From NCBI GenBank assembly GCA_027310185.1, contig DAIDBH010000017.1:160996-224995 (forward strand): a stretch of 64,000 bases of DNA, given 5' to 3'. The stretch comes from Thermoplasmatales archaeon. GTDB taxonomy: Archaea; Thermoplasmatota; Thermoplasmata; Thermoplasmatales; Thermoplasmataceae. Below, one piece after another: positions 45-46,771 of this stretch. The position numbers and the translations under genes are program-made. Below the pieces are notes generated by a model, which saw only the letters and a list, made by a program, of their open reading frames with translations, had not been told where the DNA came from and searched no databases. The number at the start of each line of letters is the position of its first letter. The first letter of the stretch is position 1.

Positions 45-1181
45 ATGAATAGGAAAATAATAATTAGCACTTTAATGGCTACTATGTTTATAGTATCAGG
101 AATTGTAGTTGCTATGAATAGTTCGTTTGAAAACACAAATGAGCTAAATACAAGTGCACATAGAAGTTTAGCAAATTCCGAACTATTGAGCGCTAGATCT
201 GGCTCCATAGCCTTGCAGTTCGATAAGTGGTATAGAGAGACATATAATGGAAGGAATCCTAATTCTATGAAAAATTTTACAATAACACAAAGAGATATGG
301 TATTTTCTAATTTTATACATTATGACTCTGCAGGACGGAAATCTCTCATGATTAGGACCAATAGTGATATAAAAAAATTTGATACTTTAAATCTTAAACA
401 CGCAGAGGTTACATTATTCGATTTAATTCATGAAAATAAGGTCATTAATTATAGTAAGATAGAGAGTTTAAGTGCTGGAAATAAGAGAATGTCAATTTAT
501 TACAGTTCAAATTCAAGTAATTCATTCCTTGTACATATAGAAACAGAACTTCCTAAAGGTGTTTCTTTCGACAGTGGAGAGTGGATAATGGTATCAATAG
601 ATTATTTTGTTTATCACGCACCATGGTGGCTAGGTGGTTGGTCTGTTACATATGGTGAACAGGATCAATTCAATGAATTGTGGGCAGGATGTACGGCGCA
701 AACTAATTATAATAACTTTGAGAACACCGTAAATGTAGGTGGATTGACTAGTGGGGTTGCAGTTTCATCAATAACCGGTCTAATAACGGCCGGAGCGATT
801 GGTGGATCATGGGGTGGACCCATTGGAGTAATTGCTGGAGCAATTGTAGCAGTCATAGCTGGATTGGTAGTTATTCATTTAGATAATACAATGACTTCTC
901 TATATGAGTCCACCTATGCGAATGAACCTTCAGGCAACAAATATATTTGGATATATTTTGTAAATGACTATTATTATCCTTGGATCACTGTTGTCGGTTC
1001 ATTCTATTCAACGATTGGGATGTATGGATATCTTTCAAGTGGTCAGGTGGAAACATTCTTTGGTAACAACCCGTGGATCTCATATAATGGCATCCAAGCT
1101 GTCACAGTTTCAGCTTATTTTTCTTCATATGTTCATAGCATAGCAGATAATTATGGATCTGGAACTTGGGTGTACTCTTGA
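45..1181 (+). CDS. Secreted protein of unknown function with a long Gly-rich hydrophobic hairpin (candidate bacteriocin/pore-former precursor)
   Basis: N-terminal signal peptide (MNRK + hydrophobic stretch); charged N-terminal half; charge-poor, aromatic/Gly/Ser-rich C-terminal half with GGLTSGVAVSSITGLITAGAIGGSWGGPIGVIAGAIVAVIAGLVVIHL. No family recognised. Confidence 0.6.
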   Translation: MNRKIIISTLMATMFIVSGIVVAMNSSFENTNELNTSAHRSLANSELLSARSGSIALQFDKWYRETYNGRNPNSMKNFTITQRDMVFSNFIHYDSAGRKSLMIRTNSDIKKFDTLNLKHAEVTLFDLIHENKVINYSKIESLSAGNKRMSIYYSSNSSNSFLVHIETELPKGVSFDSGEWIMVSIDYFVYHAPWWLGGWSVTYGEQDQFNELWAGCTAQTNYNNFENTVNVGGLTSGVAVSSITGLITAGAIGGSWGGPIGVIAGAIVAVIAGLVVIHLDNTMTSLYESTYANEPSGNKYIWIYFVNDYYYPWITVVGSFYSTIGMYGYLSSGQVETFFGNNPWISYNGIQAVTVSAYFSSYVHSIADNYGSGTWVYS

Positions 1182-1191
1182 AGGTGTGAAA

Positions 1192-1527
1192 ATGATAAAT
1201 TCAATCTATATTATATATTATTATTTATTTTTTGTATTACTGGTATTATGGATTTACTTACTGGCATACTTCTTTCGGAGGTCGAAAAATGCTGGGATAG
1301 GAAAATACAGGTATTTTCTTCTAGTTGCTAGTCTTCTAGTTTTGTGCAATGATATAGCTATTATGGTAATTGGAAAGTTATATAAATTCAATGTGAATTC
1401 AATCACAAATATAATTCAAACACAGCTAAATGTAATAATTATTGCCTTTGTGTTTGAGTTGCTTGCATTTTTAACTTTGTTTATCTACATCAGCTACGCA
1501 ACGAATAGAAAGCAGACAAAGGTGTAG
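1192..1527 (+). CDS. Small membrane protein, about 3 TM helices (candidate immunity protein)
   Basis: ATG at 1192 preceded by SD-like AAGGTGTGA that overlaps the upstream stop codon, so it is preferred over the track start at 1153; three hydrophobic segments. Confidence 0.6.
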   Translation: MINSIYIIYYYLFFVLLVLWIYLLAYFFRRSKNAGIGKYRYFLLVASLLVLCNDIAIMVIGKLYKFNVNSITNIIQTQLNVIIIAFVFELLAFLTLFIYISYATNRKQTKV

Positions 1528-1671
1528 CCTATAATTACTTATCTTTTTGATCACCAAATCATATTATCTCTCTAATATCATGCAGTATTTGAAGGATCAA
1601 GATCAGGGTCGACCACGGTAAAGAATATGCTCGCAGTTCTTCCCTTAGGAAACCATAATACACCAGAAAAC

Positions 1672-1839
1672 CTTGACGGAAAGTCTGCAATATTATGCAC
1701 AGATCAGCCACTATCCGCTGAAGAGATAGCTTATATTTATCTGGAGAAGGACTTCGTTGAGAAGGTATTCCGCACCATGTAGAGTCGGGAAGAGATAGTT
1801 CCTGTGAGGCACAGACTTGAAAGAAGGGTACGGGTTTAG
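1672..1839 (+). pseudogene. IS1634-like transposase C-terminal remnant
   Basis: Frame from 1672 reads LDGKSAILCTDQPLSAEEIAYIYLEKDFVEKVFRTM*SREEIVPVRHRLERRVRV*, matching the VEKxFRxxK...PVRHRLExRVR motif of IS1634-type DDE transposases, with an internal stop. Confidence 0.7.
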
Positions 1840-2726: not shown

Positions 2727-3398
2727 ATGAGTTATTATAAAAGACAAGTCACTGTCAGTACAGATTCAGAATTCAAAAGAAGATCTGGCGATATCATTGA
2801 TTTGGGAAATAAGCTGTATTCAAGAGGATTGCTTAATGCTACGAGCGGTAATATAAGCTCTGTTCTGAATGAAGATCCCCTCGAGCTTGCAATTACTGCA
2901 AGTGGAGTGGATAAGGGAAATATGAATGCTGAGGATATCATTATTATTGATTCAGATGGAACTGTTACCGAAGGAAATGGAAAACCTTCTGCTGAAACAT
3001 TGCTTCATCTTGCTGTAATAAAAAATAGTGAAGCCAAATCGGTGATACATACTCACTCAATATGGTCTACTGTCCTCTCAAGAATATATTTGCCTGAAGG
3101 CTTCCTAAGCCTTAAAGGATACGAAATGCTTAAGGCCCTCGACGGAAATAAGACGCATGAAACTAATGAAGTGATACCTGTGTTTGAAAATACACAGGAC
3201 ATGAAGGGGTTATCTGAAAGAGTTTCAAAATATCTTAAGGAACATCCAGAAACGCATGGTTTTGTACTTAGCGGCCATGGACTCTACACCTGGGGAAAGA
3301 GCCTCAAGGAAGCTAAGAGATCTGTTGAAGCACTTGAGTTTCTGCTTGAAGTTAAGGGCAGGGAGTTAAGCCTATCGGAAATAAAAATACAAGGGTGA
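2727..3398 (+). CDS. mtnB: Methylthioribulose-1-phosphate dehydratase
   Basis: ATSGNIS, ITASGVDKG, KPSAETLLH, HTHS and GHGLYTWG motifs of the class II aldolase/MtnB family; YEMLKAL typical of MtnB. Confidence 0.9.
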   Translation: MSYYKRQVTVSTDSEFKRRSGDIIDLGNKLYSRGLLNATSGNISSVLNEDPLELAITASGVDKGNMNAEDIIIIDSDGTVTEGNGKPSAETLLHLAVIKNSEAKSVIHTHSIWSTVLSRIYLPEGFLSLKGYEMLKALDGNKTHETNEVIPVFENTQDMKGLSERVSKYLKEHPETHGFVLSGHGLYTWGKSLKEAKRSVEALEFLLEVKGRELSLSEIKIQG

Positions 3399-3402
3399 GT
3401 AA

Positions 3403-3963
3403 ATGGTTTCATTGAAGATATTAGAAAAGCATCAAGAGATTAATGATCCGCTGAAAGTGTCAAAAATTCTCAATGGGTATGGGATAAAGTATGAAAAGTG
3501 GAATTCAGATAAACTCCAATCTGAAAATGCATCTCCCGAAAAGATACTTGATGTATATCATGAGGAAGTGGAGAAACTAAAAAAAGAAGGGGGTTATGTG
3601 ACTGCAGATGTTATTGATATAAACGATAGCACTCCTGGACTTAATGAGATGCTGGCTAAGTTCAACAAAGAACACTGGCACGATGAAGATGAGGTTAGGT
3701 ACACGATAAAGGGTCATGGGTTGTTTCATATTTATCCAGAAGAAGGAGTTACCTTATCAGTAGAGGTTGAAAAAGGAGACCTTCTGAGAGTACCAAGAGG
3801 GACAAAACACTGGTTTGATCTCTGTAAAGACAGAGAAATAAGAGCTATAAGACTGTTCCAGAACAAAAGTGGGTGGACCCCGTATTATACAAACAGTGGA
3901 AACGAAAAGAAATTCGTTCCACTGTGCTTTGGTCCTTCATTTATTCCCCTCAGGAAGGATTAG
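3403..3963 (+). CDS. mtnD: Acireductone dioxygenase
   Basis: Cupin metal ligands EHWHDEDEVRY and KHWFD; IRAIRLF...GWTPYY tail typical of ARD. Confidence 0.9.
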   Translation: MVSLKILEKHQEINDPLKVSKILNGYGIKYEKWNSDKLQSENASPEKILDVYHEEVEKLKKEGGYVTADVIDINDSTPGLNEMLAKFNKEHWHDEDEVRYTIKGHGLFHIYPEEGVTLSVEVEKGDLLRVPRGTKHWFDLCKDREIRAIRLFQNKSGWTPYYTNSGNEKKFVPLCFGPSFIPLRKD

Positions 3964-3971
3964 GGCACACC

Positions 3972-4676
3972 ATGGCATGTAAAATTTATACAGAAAATAC
4001 TGTAATACTTGACATAGAGGGGACCACAACCCCAATAGATTTTGTGCATGTGACCCTGTTTAAGTATGCCAGAGATAACCTGACTGAATTCCTTTTGAAA
4101 AACAATAAAGGCAATGCACTGGAACAGATACTTCTAGAAATAGTTGAATATTCAAAAATTACTGAAAGAAGGGAACCTATCAGTGATGAACAGATTGTTG
4201 CGTGTATTGAGAACCTTATAGAAAAGGATAGCAAGCTTGGAGCACTGAAAAAACTTGAGGGACTCATCTGGCAGGAAGGTTATGAATCCGGAAAGCTGAA
4301 GAGTGAGATATACGATGATGTGCCAGAATCTCTCAAAGGATGGAAAAAATCAGGAAAAAAGATCTATATTTACTCATCAGGAAGCGTACTGGCACAAAAG
4401 CTCCTGTTTAGATACTCCATATTTGGGGATCTTACAGGATACATTGACGGTTATTTCGACACGGAAATAGGGTCCAAGAAGGAGATTGAAAGTTACAGGA
4501 ATATTTCCAAGAATTTGGAAGTTTTACCCGAAAGAATTACATTCATAACAGATTCCGAAGAAGAGATGAAGTCAGCACGAAATGCAGGTATTAATTCATT
4601 TCTCATCAAAAGGAATTATAATGAATCAGATGGTCAGCAGGTTGATTTCATCGTTGATTTTAAAAGCCTCTGTTGA
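3972..4676 (+). CDS. mtnC: Enolase-phosphatase E1 (acireductone synthase)
   Basis: HAD motif ILDIEGTTTPIDFV, GLIWQEGY, IYIYSSGSVLAQKLLF, GYFDTEIGSK. ATG at 3972 chosen over 3873 to avoid a long overlap with mtnD. Confidence 0.9.
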   Translation: MACKIYTENTVILDIEGTTTPIDFVHVTLFKYARDNLTEFLLKNNKGNALEQILLEIVEYSKITERREPISDEQIVACIENLIEKDSKLGALKKLEGLIWQEGYESGKLKSEIYDDVPESLKGWKKSGKKIYIYSSGSVLAQKLLFRYSIFGDLTGYIDGYFDTEIGSKKEIESYRNISKNLEVLPERITFITDSEEEMKSARNAGINSFLIKRNYNESDGQQVDFIVDFKSLC

Positions 4677-5930: not shown

Positions 5931-7447
5931 CCTTAACTCACCCTTTTTTACGTAATATGTCCAGATCAATATTCAGGTCTGCCACCAGATCTTTCGCTTT
6001 TTTCGGTATTTCACTCATGATCTCCCCTTTCTCCATCCCGTACATCTTGATCCTTGACAGTATGAGGAGTATATCCCTCACACTGTATTTCCCATCTATC
6101 ATGTTGAGTATCTGGAAGTGAAGGTACAGTGACAGCAGATTCAAGAACATGTAAGTGAATAGCATATGGTCATCCCTCAGGTATGATCGATCTGCCTCAA
6201 GATCATTCTTGTAAACATTGAATGCGTATTCCACATATTCACGCTGTTTGTATAATCCATATATTCTTTCAGGTTCCTCATTGAGATCCGAAAGAAGGTA
6301 CAGCTTTCCAAAGTTGATCTCATTTTCATCATACTGTTTTTTGCTTTTCTTATTCTCCTCAATACGGATGAGATAATCTTTTTCTTCCTCGCTCTTCAGC
6401 ACAGGATCCTCAAATATGTACACATCCTCATTCCTCTTCCAGTACTTCACAGGCTTGCCATCATACATGAACACACCCATGAAGTGATCCTGTTCAGGTA
6501 TGAGTGATGAGTTTCTCCTCAATGGTATGATGTAGCTGAGATGTTTTTTCTTCAGCTTATCCACATTATCTGAAGAGAAGAATCCATTATCAGCCACTAT
6601 GACACACTTCTCAATTCCTGCCATGTCAATTGTTTTTGACATAGCGGAAACATCCCTTATGGATCCTGGGAGTACCCTTACGAATGTTGGCAATGTCCTT
6701 GTTGATGAGAACAGCATCATGACATTGATCTGGGGTATGTGTATATTCCTTGAATTATGTCCAGGTTCAAGGAATGAAATATTCTCTGACCTGGAGAATA
6801 TGGCCGTTGAATCCATGAGGACATATTCACCCTTTTCTGTGAGTTTTCTCATGACACGGATGCTCTGATCTTCCGGAAGTGATGAGAGCATTCTGGATAA
6901 TGAATCCGGTGACATGCTCTCATCCATTATCCTGCACAGATATGTCCTCTCATACAGGTAGTGTACAGACTTCATTGGAAGTGGCTGTATATTCCTCAAC
7001 ATGACATATGAGATGATGCGTTCCCACATTGTTGGATATATCTCCTTCAGTACAGGTATCATGGTTTTTTCTGCTATTCCATGGAGTAAAGCTATGTTTC
7101 CATATTCATGATCTGATCTCACCATTCCCATGGATCTTGTCTTCACTATGCCATCATGTGTTACTACACCCAGGTACTTTCCGGTGATCTTGTCAGCCCT
7201 CTTCTTTTCCCTGTTCCATTTACTGGTCATCTCATAGGCATAATAACGATCTCCTGATTTTCTTATCTCGACACCCTTTGTCTTGTACTTCTTCACCCAT
7301 TCTGGAAGATCAACCATATTACATAGTATGTGTAATATGTATATAGAGCTATCGCAATAGAGAATAAATTCCATTAATATGGTGTTTCATGGAGATTGAA
7401 AGATGAGAATCTGTTCCTACTATTACACAAAAAACATGGAGTTAAGG
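5931..7447 (-). mobile_element. Intact insertion sequence, IS1634-like (IS4-type DDE)
   Basis: Terminal inverted repeats CCTTAACTC (5931-5939) and GAGTTAAGG (7439-7447); 6-bp target duplication ATTAAA at 5925-5930 and 7448-7453; one uninterrupted transposase ORF. Confidence 0.9.
5938..7317 (-). CDS. DDE transposase (IS1634-like)
   Basis: VLMDSTA, IVADNGFFS and Y..REYVEYAFNVYKN DDE motifs; likely start MVDLPEW at 7317; the stop codon overlaps the left IR. Confidence 0.9.
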   Translation of the reverse strand: MVDLPEWVKKYKTKGVEIRKSGDRYYAYEMTSKWNREKKRADKITGKYLGVVTHDGIVKTRSMGMVRSDHEYGNIALLHGIAEKTMIPVLKEIYPTMWERIISYVMLRNIQPLPMKSVHYLYERTYLCRIMDESMSPDSLSRMLSSLPEDQSIRVMRKLTEKGEYVLMDSTAIFSRSENISFLEPGHNSRNIHIPQINVMMLFSSTRTLPTFVRVLPGSIRDVSAMSKTIDMAGIEKCVIVADNGFFSSDNVDKLKKKHLSYIIPLRRNSSLIPEQDHFMGVFMYDGKPVKYWKRNEDVYIFEDPVLKSEEEKDYLIRIEENKKSKKQYDENEINFGKLYLLSDLNEEPERIYGLYKQREYVEYAFNVYKNDLEADRSYLRDDHMLFTYMFLNLLSLYLHFQILNMIDGKYSVRDILLILSRIKMYGMEKGEIMSEIPKKAKDLVADLNIDLDILRKKG

Positions 7448-7540: not shown

Positions 7541-8083
7541 TTATTCCTGAAGGATCATTTCTGCGTGAGCAGTGAATTTGATCTTACTTCCGACCATTAC
7601 CTTCCCTGCCTCTATTACCATGTTCCATTTCAGTCCGAATTCCTCCCTGACTATTTCCCCTGAAACAGTTATTCCTGCCCTTGTCTTTCCATATGGATCC
7701 TTTATTATTCCTTCCAGGTCTCCATGAAAGGATATCTCCCTGGTGACATCTCTGATTGTGAGATTTCCCTTGATAATGTACTCACTGTCCCCCTTCTTGC
7801 TTATAGAGGTGCTTTCAAATTTTATCTCTTTATATTTTTCCACGTCAAAAAAGTCAGGAGACTTCAGGTGATTGTCCCTGTCAGTTTCCCTTGTGCTAAT
7901 TGATGATGGATCAATTGTCACGCTTACCTTTGCATTTTCTGGAGCCTCATCAGATCCGAACGCCTTTATCTCAAACTTACCAAAATTACCCTTGACTGTT
8001 GATATCATCATATGCCTTGCTGAGAACTCAATTTCTGAATGCGCACTGTCAGATATCCATTTCATTTGCTTCTGTGTTTCCAT
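7541..8083 (-). CDS. YceI-family lipid/polyisoprenoid-binding protein
   Basis: DSAHSEIEFSARHMMISTVKGNF, RDNHLKSPDFFDVEKY, GNLTIRDVTR, REEFGLKWN. Confidence 0.92.
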   Translation of the reverse strand: METQKQMKWISDSAHSEIEFSARHMMISTVKGNFGKFEIKAFGSDEAPENAKVSVTIDPSSISTRETDRDNHLKSPDFFDVEKYKEIKFESTSISKKGDSEYIIKGNLTIRDVTREISFHGDLEGIIKDPYGKTRAGITVSGEIVREEFGLKWNMVIEAGKVMVGSKIKFTAHAEMILQE

Positions 8084-20025: not shown

Positions 20026-20098
20026 TGGGGCTGCCCGGATTTGGACCGGAGTCTCAGGCTCCCAAAGCCCGTAGGATACCAAGCTACCCCACAGCCCC
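20026..20098 (-). tRNA. tRNA-Pro (anticodon TGG), no encoded CCA
   Basis: Reverse strand GGGGCTG...CAGCCCC-A acceptor stem; anticodon arm CGGGC-TTTGGGA-GCCTG; T-loop reads TCCAAAT (non-canonical C55). Confidence 0.9.
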
Positions 20099-46687: not shown

Positions 46688-46771
46688 CGCTGGGAGGGAG
46701 ATTCGAACTCCCGAGCTACAGGAGCACAAGCTTTCCAGACTTGCGCCTTACCAGGCTAGGCTATCCCAGCT
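46688..46771 (-). tRNA. tRNA-Ser (anticodon GGA), long variable arm, no encoded CCA
   Basis: Reverse strand GCTGGGA...TCCCAGC-G acceptor; anticodon arm CAAGT-CTGGAAA-GCTTG; T-arm GGGAG-TTCGAAT-CTCCC. Confidence 0.92.

Follow-up and report, generated by a model that had tools for sequence, protein, structure and literature searches.

Pore-forming colicins such as E1 and A insert an uncharged helical hairpin into the membrane (PMC11630599) and are encoded next to a small immunity gene (Cei and Cai, respectively) whose product has three to four transmembrane (TM) segments. Here we describe a gene pair of related layout at the start of a 64,000-nucleotide stretch of a Thermoplasmatales archaeon (contig DAIDBH010000017.1, positions 160,996 to 224,995; the whole stretch is called the window below). 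A large gene codes for a predicted exported protein of 378 amino acids (aa) with a Gly-rich hydrophobic hairpin, and a small gene directly downstream codes for a 111-aa membrane protein. A first-pass annotation, made from the letters alone, had read the two as an archaeal antimicrobial protein with its immunity gene and had pointed to colicin-type pore formers and to halocin C8. We find this antimicrobial interpretation partly supported. In its apparent mode of working the pair is most like the colicin E1/Cei-type or EsxX/ExiCD-type pairs, yet it belongs to neither class.

What makes immunity specific in colicins E1, 5 and 10 is that the hairpin region is recognised helix to helix within the membrane, which matches the co-variation of hairpin and partner in the module described here. 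The likeness to colicin-type pore formers does not extend to sequence or fold, where no similarity was found. The conserved part of the large protein is modelled as an alpha/beta domain, unlike the 10-helix bundle of colicins (PF01024, not matched); its hairpin lies in the middle of the protein and not in a C-terminal domain; a predicted Sec signal stands where colicins rely on a lysis protein; and its archaeal host has no outer membrane. The partner gene is co-directional and translationally coupled, whereas in most operons of pore-forming colicins the immunity gene does not run in the direction of the toxin gene.

Gly-zippers in hydrophobic helices, a cognate integral-membrane gene immediately downstream (for immunity, which in the present pair is putative) and polymorphic recombining cassettes are also shared with a group of membrane-depolarising bacterial effectors that comprises Staphylococcus aureus EsxX/ExiCD, Streptococcus gallolyticus TelE, the CdiA-CT/CdiI pairs of contact-dependent inhibition (CDI), and Tse4 and Ssp6 of the type VI secretion system (T6SS) (PMC12744356, PMC11630599, 10.1101/2022.09.07.506920). 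The toxic parts of these effectors are C-terminal tips delivered by type VII, type V or type VI secretion systems (T7SS, T5SS, T6SS), and for some of them orphan immunity genes occur in strains that do not make the toxin. In contrast, the module has an internal hairpin within a conserved ectodomain, a predicted Sec signal in place of such a secretion system, and no orphan partners in the loci and databases searched, and neither Pfam nor NCBIfam detected an LXG, CdiA or PAAR/VgrG-linked delivery domain in the large protein.

Among archaeal systems, the nearest analogue in ecology is the sulfolobicin pair SulA/SulB of Sulfolobus: two adjacent genes of a thermoacidophile, with membrane- or vesicle-associated products active on close relatives and an architecture that differs from ours (PMC6524685). 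In the present pair the second gene codes for a polytopic membrane protein, and the family searches gave Thermoplasmata proteins only. Both SulA and SulB are exported toxin components, and we know of no immunity gene identified for them. Halocin C8, the analogy drawn in the first-pass annotation, is a protein antimicrobial of archaea that derives from a longer exported precursor, ProC8; HalC8 itself is a small Cys-rich peptide cut from this Tat-exported precursor, the N-terminal part of which is the immunity protein. In the mature large protein C216 is the only Cys. Its signal is of the Sec type, its membrane partner is encoded separately, our searches gave no similarity to halocin C8, and nothing speaks for a comparable processing from a larger precursor. 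Since, apart from one probably compositional match of the hairpin, no relative was found by sequence or fold in Pfam, NCBIfam, PADLOC, the PDB or BFVD, the pair is neither a colicin nor a halocin.

The VARTIG modules of Thermococcales, interpreted as an archaeal conflict or recognition system, likewise consist of a signal-peptide protein followed by small predicted membrane proteins that go with its subfamily (PMC8416519). They differ in being variable multi-gene arrays around an Ig-domain protein (arCOG07710), as opposed to a fixed two-gene unit with another, unassigned fold. Traits that may recall archaeal surface and S-layer glycoproteins are the signal peptide, the hydrophobic hairpin, the C-terminal half poor in K and R, the N-x-S/T sequons and, in long homologues, surface-type repeats; in fold, no known surface protein was matched. 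The module may be a polymorphic pair of the toxin-immunity kind built on a fold without detectable relatives, and there is a fair chance that it represents a system new to science.

Predicted architecture of the two proteins

The large protein starts with a Sec-type n/h/c layout (MNRK-IIISTLMATMFIVSGIVVA/MNSS, the slash marking the predicted cleavage site), in which MNRK is followed by a 19-residue hydrophobic stretch and then by VVA/M. Both the Ala at –1 and the n/h/c pattern are seen repeatedly in the homologue alignment, consistent with export of the protein. Charged residues (K+R+D+E) make up 20.0% of residues 1–190 and 5.9% of residues 191–378 (one K, no R). The longest uncharged run, 53 aa (227–279), exceeds the shuffle mean of 30 (P = 0.013). 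The initial description of a protein with a signal peptide, a charged N-terminal half and a nearly charge-free C-terminal half is therefore borne out by the sequence.

Within the N-terminal half, which carries five N-x-S/T sequons, lies a domain with 23.6% charged residues and the lowest conservation among the folded parts of the protein. In the family alignment the variable N-terminal part leads to the motif NYFVYHAPWWLGGWSVTYGE(H/Q)D, then to a Gly/Ala hairpin of several sequence types, and then to a conserved block (LYESTYANEPSGNKYIW...DYYYPW(V/I)TVVGSLASS). The first half of the conserved core includes the motif YFVYHAPWWLGGWSVTYGEQD (nucleotides (nt) 603–665), into which one recombination breakpoint falls; the second contains LYESTYANEPSGNKYIW, DYYYPWITVVGS and a C-terminal helix. 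Residues E205, D207, Q219, N223, E288, S289, T290, N293 and K299 are invariant or nearly so among the 20–29 sequences aligned.

The hairpin is where the first-pass annotation had located a hydrophobic Gly-zipper of ~48 aa, and the segment quoted there (VGGLTSGVAVSSITGLITAGAIGGSWGGPIGVIAGAIVAVIAGLVVIHL) is indeed present. Its periodicity goes beyond what composition-matched shuffles give, with six GxxxG motifs versus 2.4 (P = 0.012) and 10 triple small-xxx-small patterns versus 3.7 (P = 0.002). A tight SWGGP turn (Pro/Gly) separates the helices, the hairpin helix reaches a Kyte-Doolittle value of 2.7, and all hairpin types across the family keep the Gly/Ala-rich character.

Structure prediction with AlphaFold2 (AF2) gave a predicted local distance difference test (pLDDT) score of 61 for the full-length protein and of 74 for residues 130–378 (29 sequences), with 10-residue core blocks up to 94. 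The models comprise the helical N-terminal domain, a beta-rich core built from both sides of the hairpin, and two flanking helices; the hairpin itself appears as two helices with pLDDT below 50. Because the sequences on either side of it come together in a single modelled domain, the hairpin is predicted to have its two ends on one side of the membrane, the outer one, and these would thus lie outside the cell.

The small protein has three Kyte-Doolittle TM segments. Its gene is co-directional with the large gene and starts 10 nt downstream of the large-gene stop codon (TGA, 1179–1181), with which the Shine-Dalgarno (SD)-like sequence shares one base. The coupling of the two open reading frames (ORFs) proposed at first pass is thereby confirmed. 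Gene callers choose an alternative start, ATG 1153, giving 124 aa; we favour ATG 1192 because of the equivalent starts in the homologue alignment and the SD. The small proteins of the family have no invariant residue and share a layout of TM1, basic loop, TM2, loop, TM3 and basic tail, from which, by the positive-inside rule, an N-out/C-in topology is predicted.

One metatranscriptome contig covers both genes and runs on to nt 1710, within a downstream insertion sequence (IS) remnant. In the same RNA run (X24) the flanking intergenic stretches have a depth of 0, while the DNA run of that sample shows no gap; the contigs carry no strand information. Given this combination, the large and small genes are very probably one transcript.

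Hairpin and partner types across the family

We compared the pair with homologous loci in other assemblies (L numbers below; single proteins have P numbers). Each intact short homologue, that is, other than the long forms considered further below, is followed by a gene for a 100–146-aa protein with three to four TM segments, at a spacing ranging from overlap to 35 nt (window, L007 copy 1, L008–L014, L016, L020, L022, L025, L027, L029, L032 and L037). A hidden Markov model (HMM) of the small protein, run over 37 loci and the window, matched directly after every intact short homologue and nowhere else. The small membrane-protein gene is thus a constant companion of these homologues, as an immunity gene was expected to be.

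Mosaic alleles reveal what the pairing involves. The DNA of L024 is ~100% identical to L022 from upstream of the gene to codon ~190 and from there on 93–100% identical to L025, the L025-like part including the hairpin, the C-terminal part and the small gene; the breakpoint between the three lies at aa ~190–195, at the WWLGGW motif. L011 and copy 1 of L029 share 93–98% DNA identity in the N-terminal part and 90–98% in the C-terminal part, as opposed to 40–60% in the hairpin and 30–45% in the small gene, and the hairpin tract of L011 is instead 90–98% identical to that of L029 copy 2. Since nearly identical flanks surround a divergent hairpin, the hairpin has been exchanged and has not drifted. 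The small protein of L011 is 52–56% identical to its counterparts in L027 and L032, two loci at which the large protein carries the L011 hairpin type. Thus, hairpin type and partner type travel together across an intervening segment of different ancestry.

The same relation was found over 16 loci. Small-protein identity correlated with hairpin identity (Mantel test, r = 0.55, p = 0.0002) and less with that of the mid core (0.39), the C-terminal part (0.38) and the N-terminal part (0.20, not significant). The correlation with the hairpin persisted when flanks were taken into account (partial Mantel test, r = 0.37, p = 0.002). In an out-of-sample locus, L037, which has a type-A hairpin, the four best matches of the small protein were those of the four other type-A loci, including the window. 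L022 likewise has a type-A hairpin, and L025 and L029 have type B. At the level of sequence, these data show that the relation between the hairpin and a small polytopic membrane protein is specific and co-evolving, a pattern expected of a toxin-immunity specificity pair. As in polymorphic toxins, the downstream gene varies with the type of the putative toxin (Mantel tests, L037), its immunity role being assumed. The breakpoint at WWLGGW and the swapped hairpin cassette also recall the layout of such toxins, but the variable part is only ~55 aa long, a conserved C-terminal part follows it, and the N-terminal domain is variable.

The sole short copy without a partner (copy 2 in L029, L007 and L019) has neither a small gene nor a signal peptide, is interrupted by an in-frame TGA that three independent assemblies share, and is mutated at invariant residues; it is a pseudogene. 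Its hairpin tract occurs intact in the functional gene of another metagenome-assembled genome (L011), which suggests that defective copies act as donors for gene conversion. E-plasma (L015) has an intact small gene next to a large gene interrupted by several stops. In the divergent locus L017 (36–2094), the large gene is followed by a gene for a 193-aa protein with five TM segments built of an internal repeat; further on, a repeat-like piece is fused to the LYESTY...DYYYPW part of the large protein and followed by transposase-like ORFs, giving the region the look of a recombination scar.

Distribution and genomic surroundings

The family is rare. About 26–28 relatives of the large protein were found among 5.8 billion clusters, and a set of 1.84 billion proteins yielded 47 clusters (50% identity). 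All named matches and all genome matches are Thermoplasmata assemblies (Cuniculiplasma sp., Thermoplasmataceae, Ferroplasmaceae UBA567, E-plasma and others), named cultured species not being represented among them. In GTDB, 10 species genomes carry the family, as counted with two peptide patterns that divergent members could escape, and a scan of metagenome contigs contributed three further loci. The samples came from mine drainage, from tailings and from a microbial fuel cell. Some genomes hold two copies that differ in type, as UBA567 does (L010, L016).

Neither protein has a significant match in Pfam, NCBIfam or PADLOC, and sequence profiles against the PDB gave no match for the large protein. 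Several weak matches were set aside. Those of the large protein to phrog_32251 (E = 2.8e-5) and to an RTX N-terminal domain (E = 0.62) are confined to the low-complexity Gly/Ala hairpin and are probably compositional. A resemblance of the small protein to Ost5/TMEM258 (Pfam, E = 0.035; PDB profile, E = 0.089) holds for just one of 16 family members, the others matching unrelated TM families, and an NCBIfam match to 'immunity protein Sip4' reached 14 bits against a cut-off of 240.

At other loci the neighbours include IS605 TnpB, IS110, HEPN/NTase genes, a restriction-modification (R-M) pair, DDE transposases and an integrase; some loci sit amid housekeeping genes, and most have no other viral or plasmid genes nearby. 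No relative of the family was found in 2.9 million IMG/VR contigs or among the plasmid records of PLSDB. The patchy distribution suspected at first pass is thus real: a rare family in differing contexts, often beside IS, toxin-antitoxin, R-M or integrase genes, and far from a conserved single-copy core gene. Its varied contexts, the lack of virus and plasmid relatives in these searches, and genomes with two types mark the module as accessory. It was probably acquired horizontally and probably moves by recombination between chromosomes and not on a recognisable element.

The composition of the window pair is atypical. With 33.9% GC, compared with 39.6 ± 1.8% in equal-sized windows, the region is the minimum of the 64 kb, so that the AT-richness noticed earlier stands. 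At third codon positions the large gene has a GC content (GC3) of 0.266, below that of all others among 46 genes (z = –3.75). In the small gene, low GC is mostly due to the amino-acid composition. The IS remnant said to follow the pair was found as well and belongs to the IS1634 family: tblastn matched 21 plasmid records (best 1e-7, 50% identity over 58 aa), and this search alone revealed it, the remnant having gone undetected by Pfam and by comparison with the transposases of the window. No joints or deletion variants marking a strain without the pair appeared in the four DNA runs searched. The coordinates of all these features are collected in Table 1.

Table 1. Features of the gene pair and its surroundings; positions refer to the window unless a locus is named
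Feature	Position	Strand	Basis or remark
Large gene, hairpin protein, predicted exported	45..1181	+	ORF of 378 aa plus stop
Predicted Sec signal peptide, aa 1–23, cleavage after VVA	45..113	+	n/h/c pattern, sequence-based
Charged helical N-terminal domain, variable, aa 45–128	177..428	+	AF2 helices, pLDDT 76–89
Conserved Trp/Tyr-rich alpha/beta core, first half, aa 137–228	453..728	+	Invariant columns; AF2 strands, pLDDT up to 94
Uncharged Gly-zipper helical hairpin, polymorphic segment, aa 229–281	729..887	+	Composition, periodicity, AF2
Conserved core, second half, aa 285–378	897..1178	+	Invariant or near-invariant columns; AF2 strands and helix, pLDDT 84–92
Shine-Dalgarno-like AGGTG	1181..1185	+	Shares nt 1181 with large-gene stop; 6 nt before ATG 1192
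Small gene, 111 aa, three-TM partner	1192..1527	+	TM segments, family alignment, hmmsearch
IS1634-family transposase, C-terminal remnant	1660..1833	+	tblastn against plasmids, read through in-frame TAG 1780–1782
Metatranscriptome contig covering both genes	70..1710	+	Run X24, 1,664 nt, depth 25
Partner-less copy 2 of large gene	L029 12103–13239; L007 9986–11122; L019 2608–3744

The sequence upstream of the window's first base is known from contig L001. There, toxin-antitoxin genes comprising VapB, PIN/VapC and ParE modules (L001 156–4373) start ~2.7 kb upstream of the large gene and are separated from it by a RibD_C gene and two unknown ORFs. Integrase genes touch the family twice: in L037 one lies 1.2 kb upstream of the pair (391–1020, minus strand), and in metagenome protein P0018 (541 aa) the N-terminal part of a phage-type integrase is fused in frame to the C-terminal 280 aa of the family. 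A conserved protein of ~100 aa (MNGTMILFHFPEGTDHGTINKFMQKFYGQD...), absent from the window and without a match in Pfam, PHROG or NCBIfam, adjoins the module in two unrelated contexts and lies 7 kb away in a third (L022 329–631; L024 5638–5937; L029 13294–13596, minus strand; L007 11177–11500, minus strand; L016 ~7751–8041).

Further into the window, positions 5931–7447 hold a 1,517-bp IS with a DDE_Tnp_1 transposase gene (5938–7374, minus strand), the ends of which (CCTTAACTC.../...GAGTTAAGG) are inverted repeats. Contig L001, otherwise 99.5% identical to the window, lacks this IS, and the flanks overlap by 6 bp in the manner of a target-site duplication. DNA run X19 shows these IS ends joined to window positions 2483/2491, i.e. 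to another site in another strain, and so the element is probably active. Adjacent genes for Aldolase_II, acireductone dioxygenase (ARD) and a HAD hydrolase at 2727–4676 resemble a methionine-salvage cluster and are transcribed in X24. The sole Rfam matches in the window are two tRNA genes (20026–20098 and 46688–46770, both minus strand).

Possible roles of the pair

We tentatively read the large gene as coding for a membrane-active toxin and the small gene for its cognate intramembrane immunity protein, an interpretation that could be right but about which we keep considerable doubt. The two ORFs make up a single operon-like module. According to this interpretation, the first product would be exported via Sec and consist of a variable helical N-terminal domain and a conserved aromatic-rich alpha/beta ectodomain, from which the uncharged Gly-zipper hairpin would protrude. 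The hairpin would be the membrane-active element, its Gly-zipper helices oligomerising to cause an ion leak, presumably lethal where the proton gradient across the membrane spans several pH units. The three-TM product of the second gene would recognise the hairpin within the membrane in an allele-specific way, bind it helix to helix and block it, and so serve as cognate immunity. Such a bacteriocin-like pair may be deployed between related archaea, most of them without a cell wall, with release, membrane vesicles or direct membrane contact as candidate routes of delivery. Precedents for Gly-zipper toxins that depolarise membranes and are opposed by polytopic membrane immunity proteins are EsxX/ExiCD (PMC12744356), the CDI ionophores with CdiI (PMC11630599) and TelE (10.1101/2022.09.07.506920).

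Several observations weigh against a toxin. With a Sec signal and a hydrophobic hairpin, the protein is expected to stay anchored in the membrane of the producing cell, beside its partner, and not to be released, which leaves the route to a target unaccounted for. The ectodomain and not a toxin tip is the most conserved part, only ~55 aa being polymorphic. There is no homology or fold match to any toxin in family libraries, the PDB or BFVD: Foldseek returned nothing significant from the PDB for the full-length and core models (best E = 0.48) and a best E of 0.28 from BFVD for the full-length model, so that the fold, as modelled, is without detectable relatives there. In the ecology of bacteriocins and polymorphic toxins, immunity genes typically occur as orphans too, yet no orphan small gene was found by the HMM over the 37 loci and the window or, judged by length and not by genomic context, by a profile search of the databases, which returned six clusters of 100–124 aa, lengths already seen among the partner genes. 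Long, high-GC homologues of 582–1,270 aa (P0025, P0035, P0066, P0067, P0044 and P0047) have the same N-terminal module followed by 200–900 aa of extracellular-type repeats, in which Pfam found no named domain. Although the distant high-GC long form L036 has a 117-aa gene with three to four TM segments 35 nt downstream, two of the three long forms with downstream sequence, L034 and L035, have an intact hairpin and no adjacent partner. Finally, co-variation is matched specificity and not proof of antagonism, and simple linkage accounts for part of the L024 mosaic. The delivery gap, the absence of orphan partners from these searches, the conserved ectodomain and the surface-like long forms without partner lend weight to explanations based on an anchored complex or on recognition.

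One such explanation, possible if rather doubtful, is a non-toxic surface complex, in which the hairpin would be a re-entrant anchor of the exported ectodomain and the three-TM protein a structural partner or assembly factor, with a role in adhesion, in envelope organisation or as the base of a longer surface protein. Retention in the producer's membrane is just what the Sec signal and hairpin predict, and the confidently modelled compact domain that spans the hairpin, with both hairpin ends presumably outside, agrees with an anchor. The repeats appended to the long homologues belong to the GLPxGTSWSV type, which is characteristic of surface proteins in archaea, and one long homologue adjoins glycosyltransferase and polysaccharide-synthesis genes. 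The scarcity of K and R in the C-terminal half is as expected for exposure at pH ~1, the sequons in the N-terminal half fit a surface protein, and the Trp/Tyr-rich motifs suit a membrane interface. A plain anchor, however, needs no allele-specific partners, and in the comparison of L011 with L029 the partner type changed together with the exchanged hairpin. An envelope component would be expected to be core and present throughout the lineage, whereas the module is rare (10 GTDB species), is not found in named cultured species, occurs in several copies of different type in UBA567, has pseudogenised copies, and sits in variable contexts that include mobile and defence genes. Nor did Foldseek against the PDB match an adhesin or S-layer protein, a result the first-pass annotation would have taken as contrary to its proposal had it been positive.

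An identity system that distinguishes self from non-self without intrinsic killing is unlikely, though part of the data agrees with it. The hairpin would here meet the partner of a touching cell, and the match of types would set compatibility, deciding e.g. whether wall-less archaea fuse, exchange DNA or aggregate. Polymorphism is concentrated in the membrane-embedded segments of both proteins and is type-matched, and discrete allele classes persist across species while their flanks are homogenised by recombination. The Proteus identity proteins IdsD and IdsE likewise have their specificity in variable membrane-proximal subdomains. Many Thermoplasmatales have no S-layer (PMC6524685), so that membranes can touch directly. 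A partner encoded in cis and translationally coupled fits protection in cis or assembly better, and the decay of the partner-less copy is not something recognition alone requires.

We also considered, for these largely wall-less archaea, an allele-specific membrane-compatibility system that combines elements of recognition and toxicity, and hold it to be no less unlikely. In it, the hairpin would enter the membrane of a touching neighbour and be neutralised by the partner if the neighbour is kin; otherwise a proton leak or a block of fusion would follow. Balancing selection would maintain a few ancient hairpin/partner types and gene conversion would shuffle them, and these types would govern which cells of an acid-mine biofilm can fuse, exchange DNA or live side by side.

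It is quite improbable that the large protein is a membrane-tethered extracellular enzyme, such as an acid-stable hydrolase with catalytic residues in the core, the hairpin as a tether and the small protein as an accessory subunit. Acidic and polar core residues (E205, D207, E288 and others) are indeed invariant or nearly so and the model of the core shows a compact alpha/beta domain, but neither sequence nor fold matched any enzyme family, and the exchange of hairpin/partner cassettes and the mobile, patchy distribution would be left unexplained. Least probable by our estimate is that the pair is cargo brought in by an integrated virus or plasmid, for instance a membrane protein of virions or vesicles or a pair for superinfection exclusion. 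In favour of this, the integrase sequences in L037 and P0018, the atypical GC3 and the match of the hairpin to a PHROG of unknown function could be cited, but that match is limited to the low-complexity Gly/Ala segment, most loci are without other viral or plasmid genes, and IMG/VR, plasmid records and BFVD hold no relative.

Thermoplasmatales dominate Earth's most acidic habitats. To our knowledge, protein-based antagonism in archaea is represented by a handful of systems only (halocins, sulfolobicins, SSV toxins and one contractile injection system), and our literature search found no paper linking Thermoplasmatales to archaeocins. If the pair is a pore former with intramembrane immunity, colicin-like logic would reach a second domain of life, and the module would offer a natural experiment on helix-helix recognition inside tetraether membranes at pH ~1 as well as a genetic marker of strain-level competition in acid-mine communities. 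Should the membrane-compatibility system prove true instead, it would be the first described case of archaeal contact-dependent kin discrimination without a secretion machine, built on a fold without known relatives. Even if the pair is not toxic, the allele-matched swap of a transmembrane hairpin together with its partner is an unusual evolutionary pattern.

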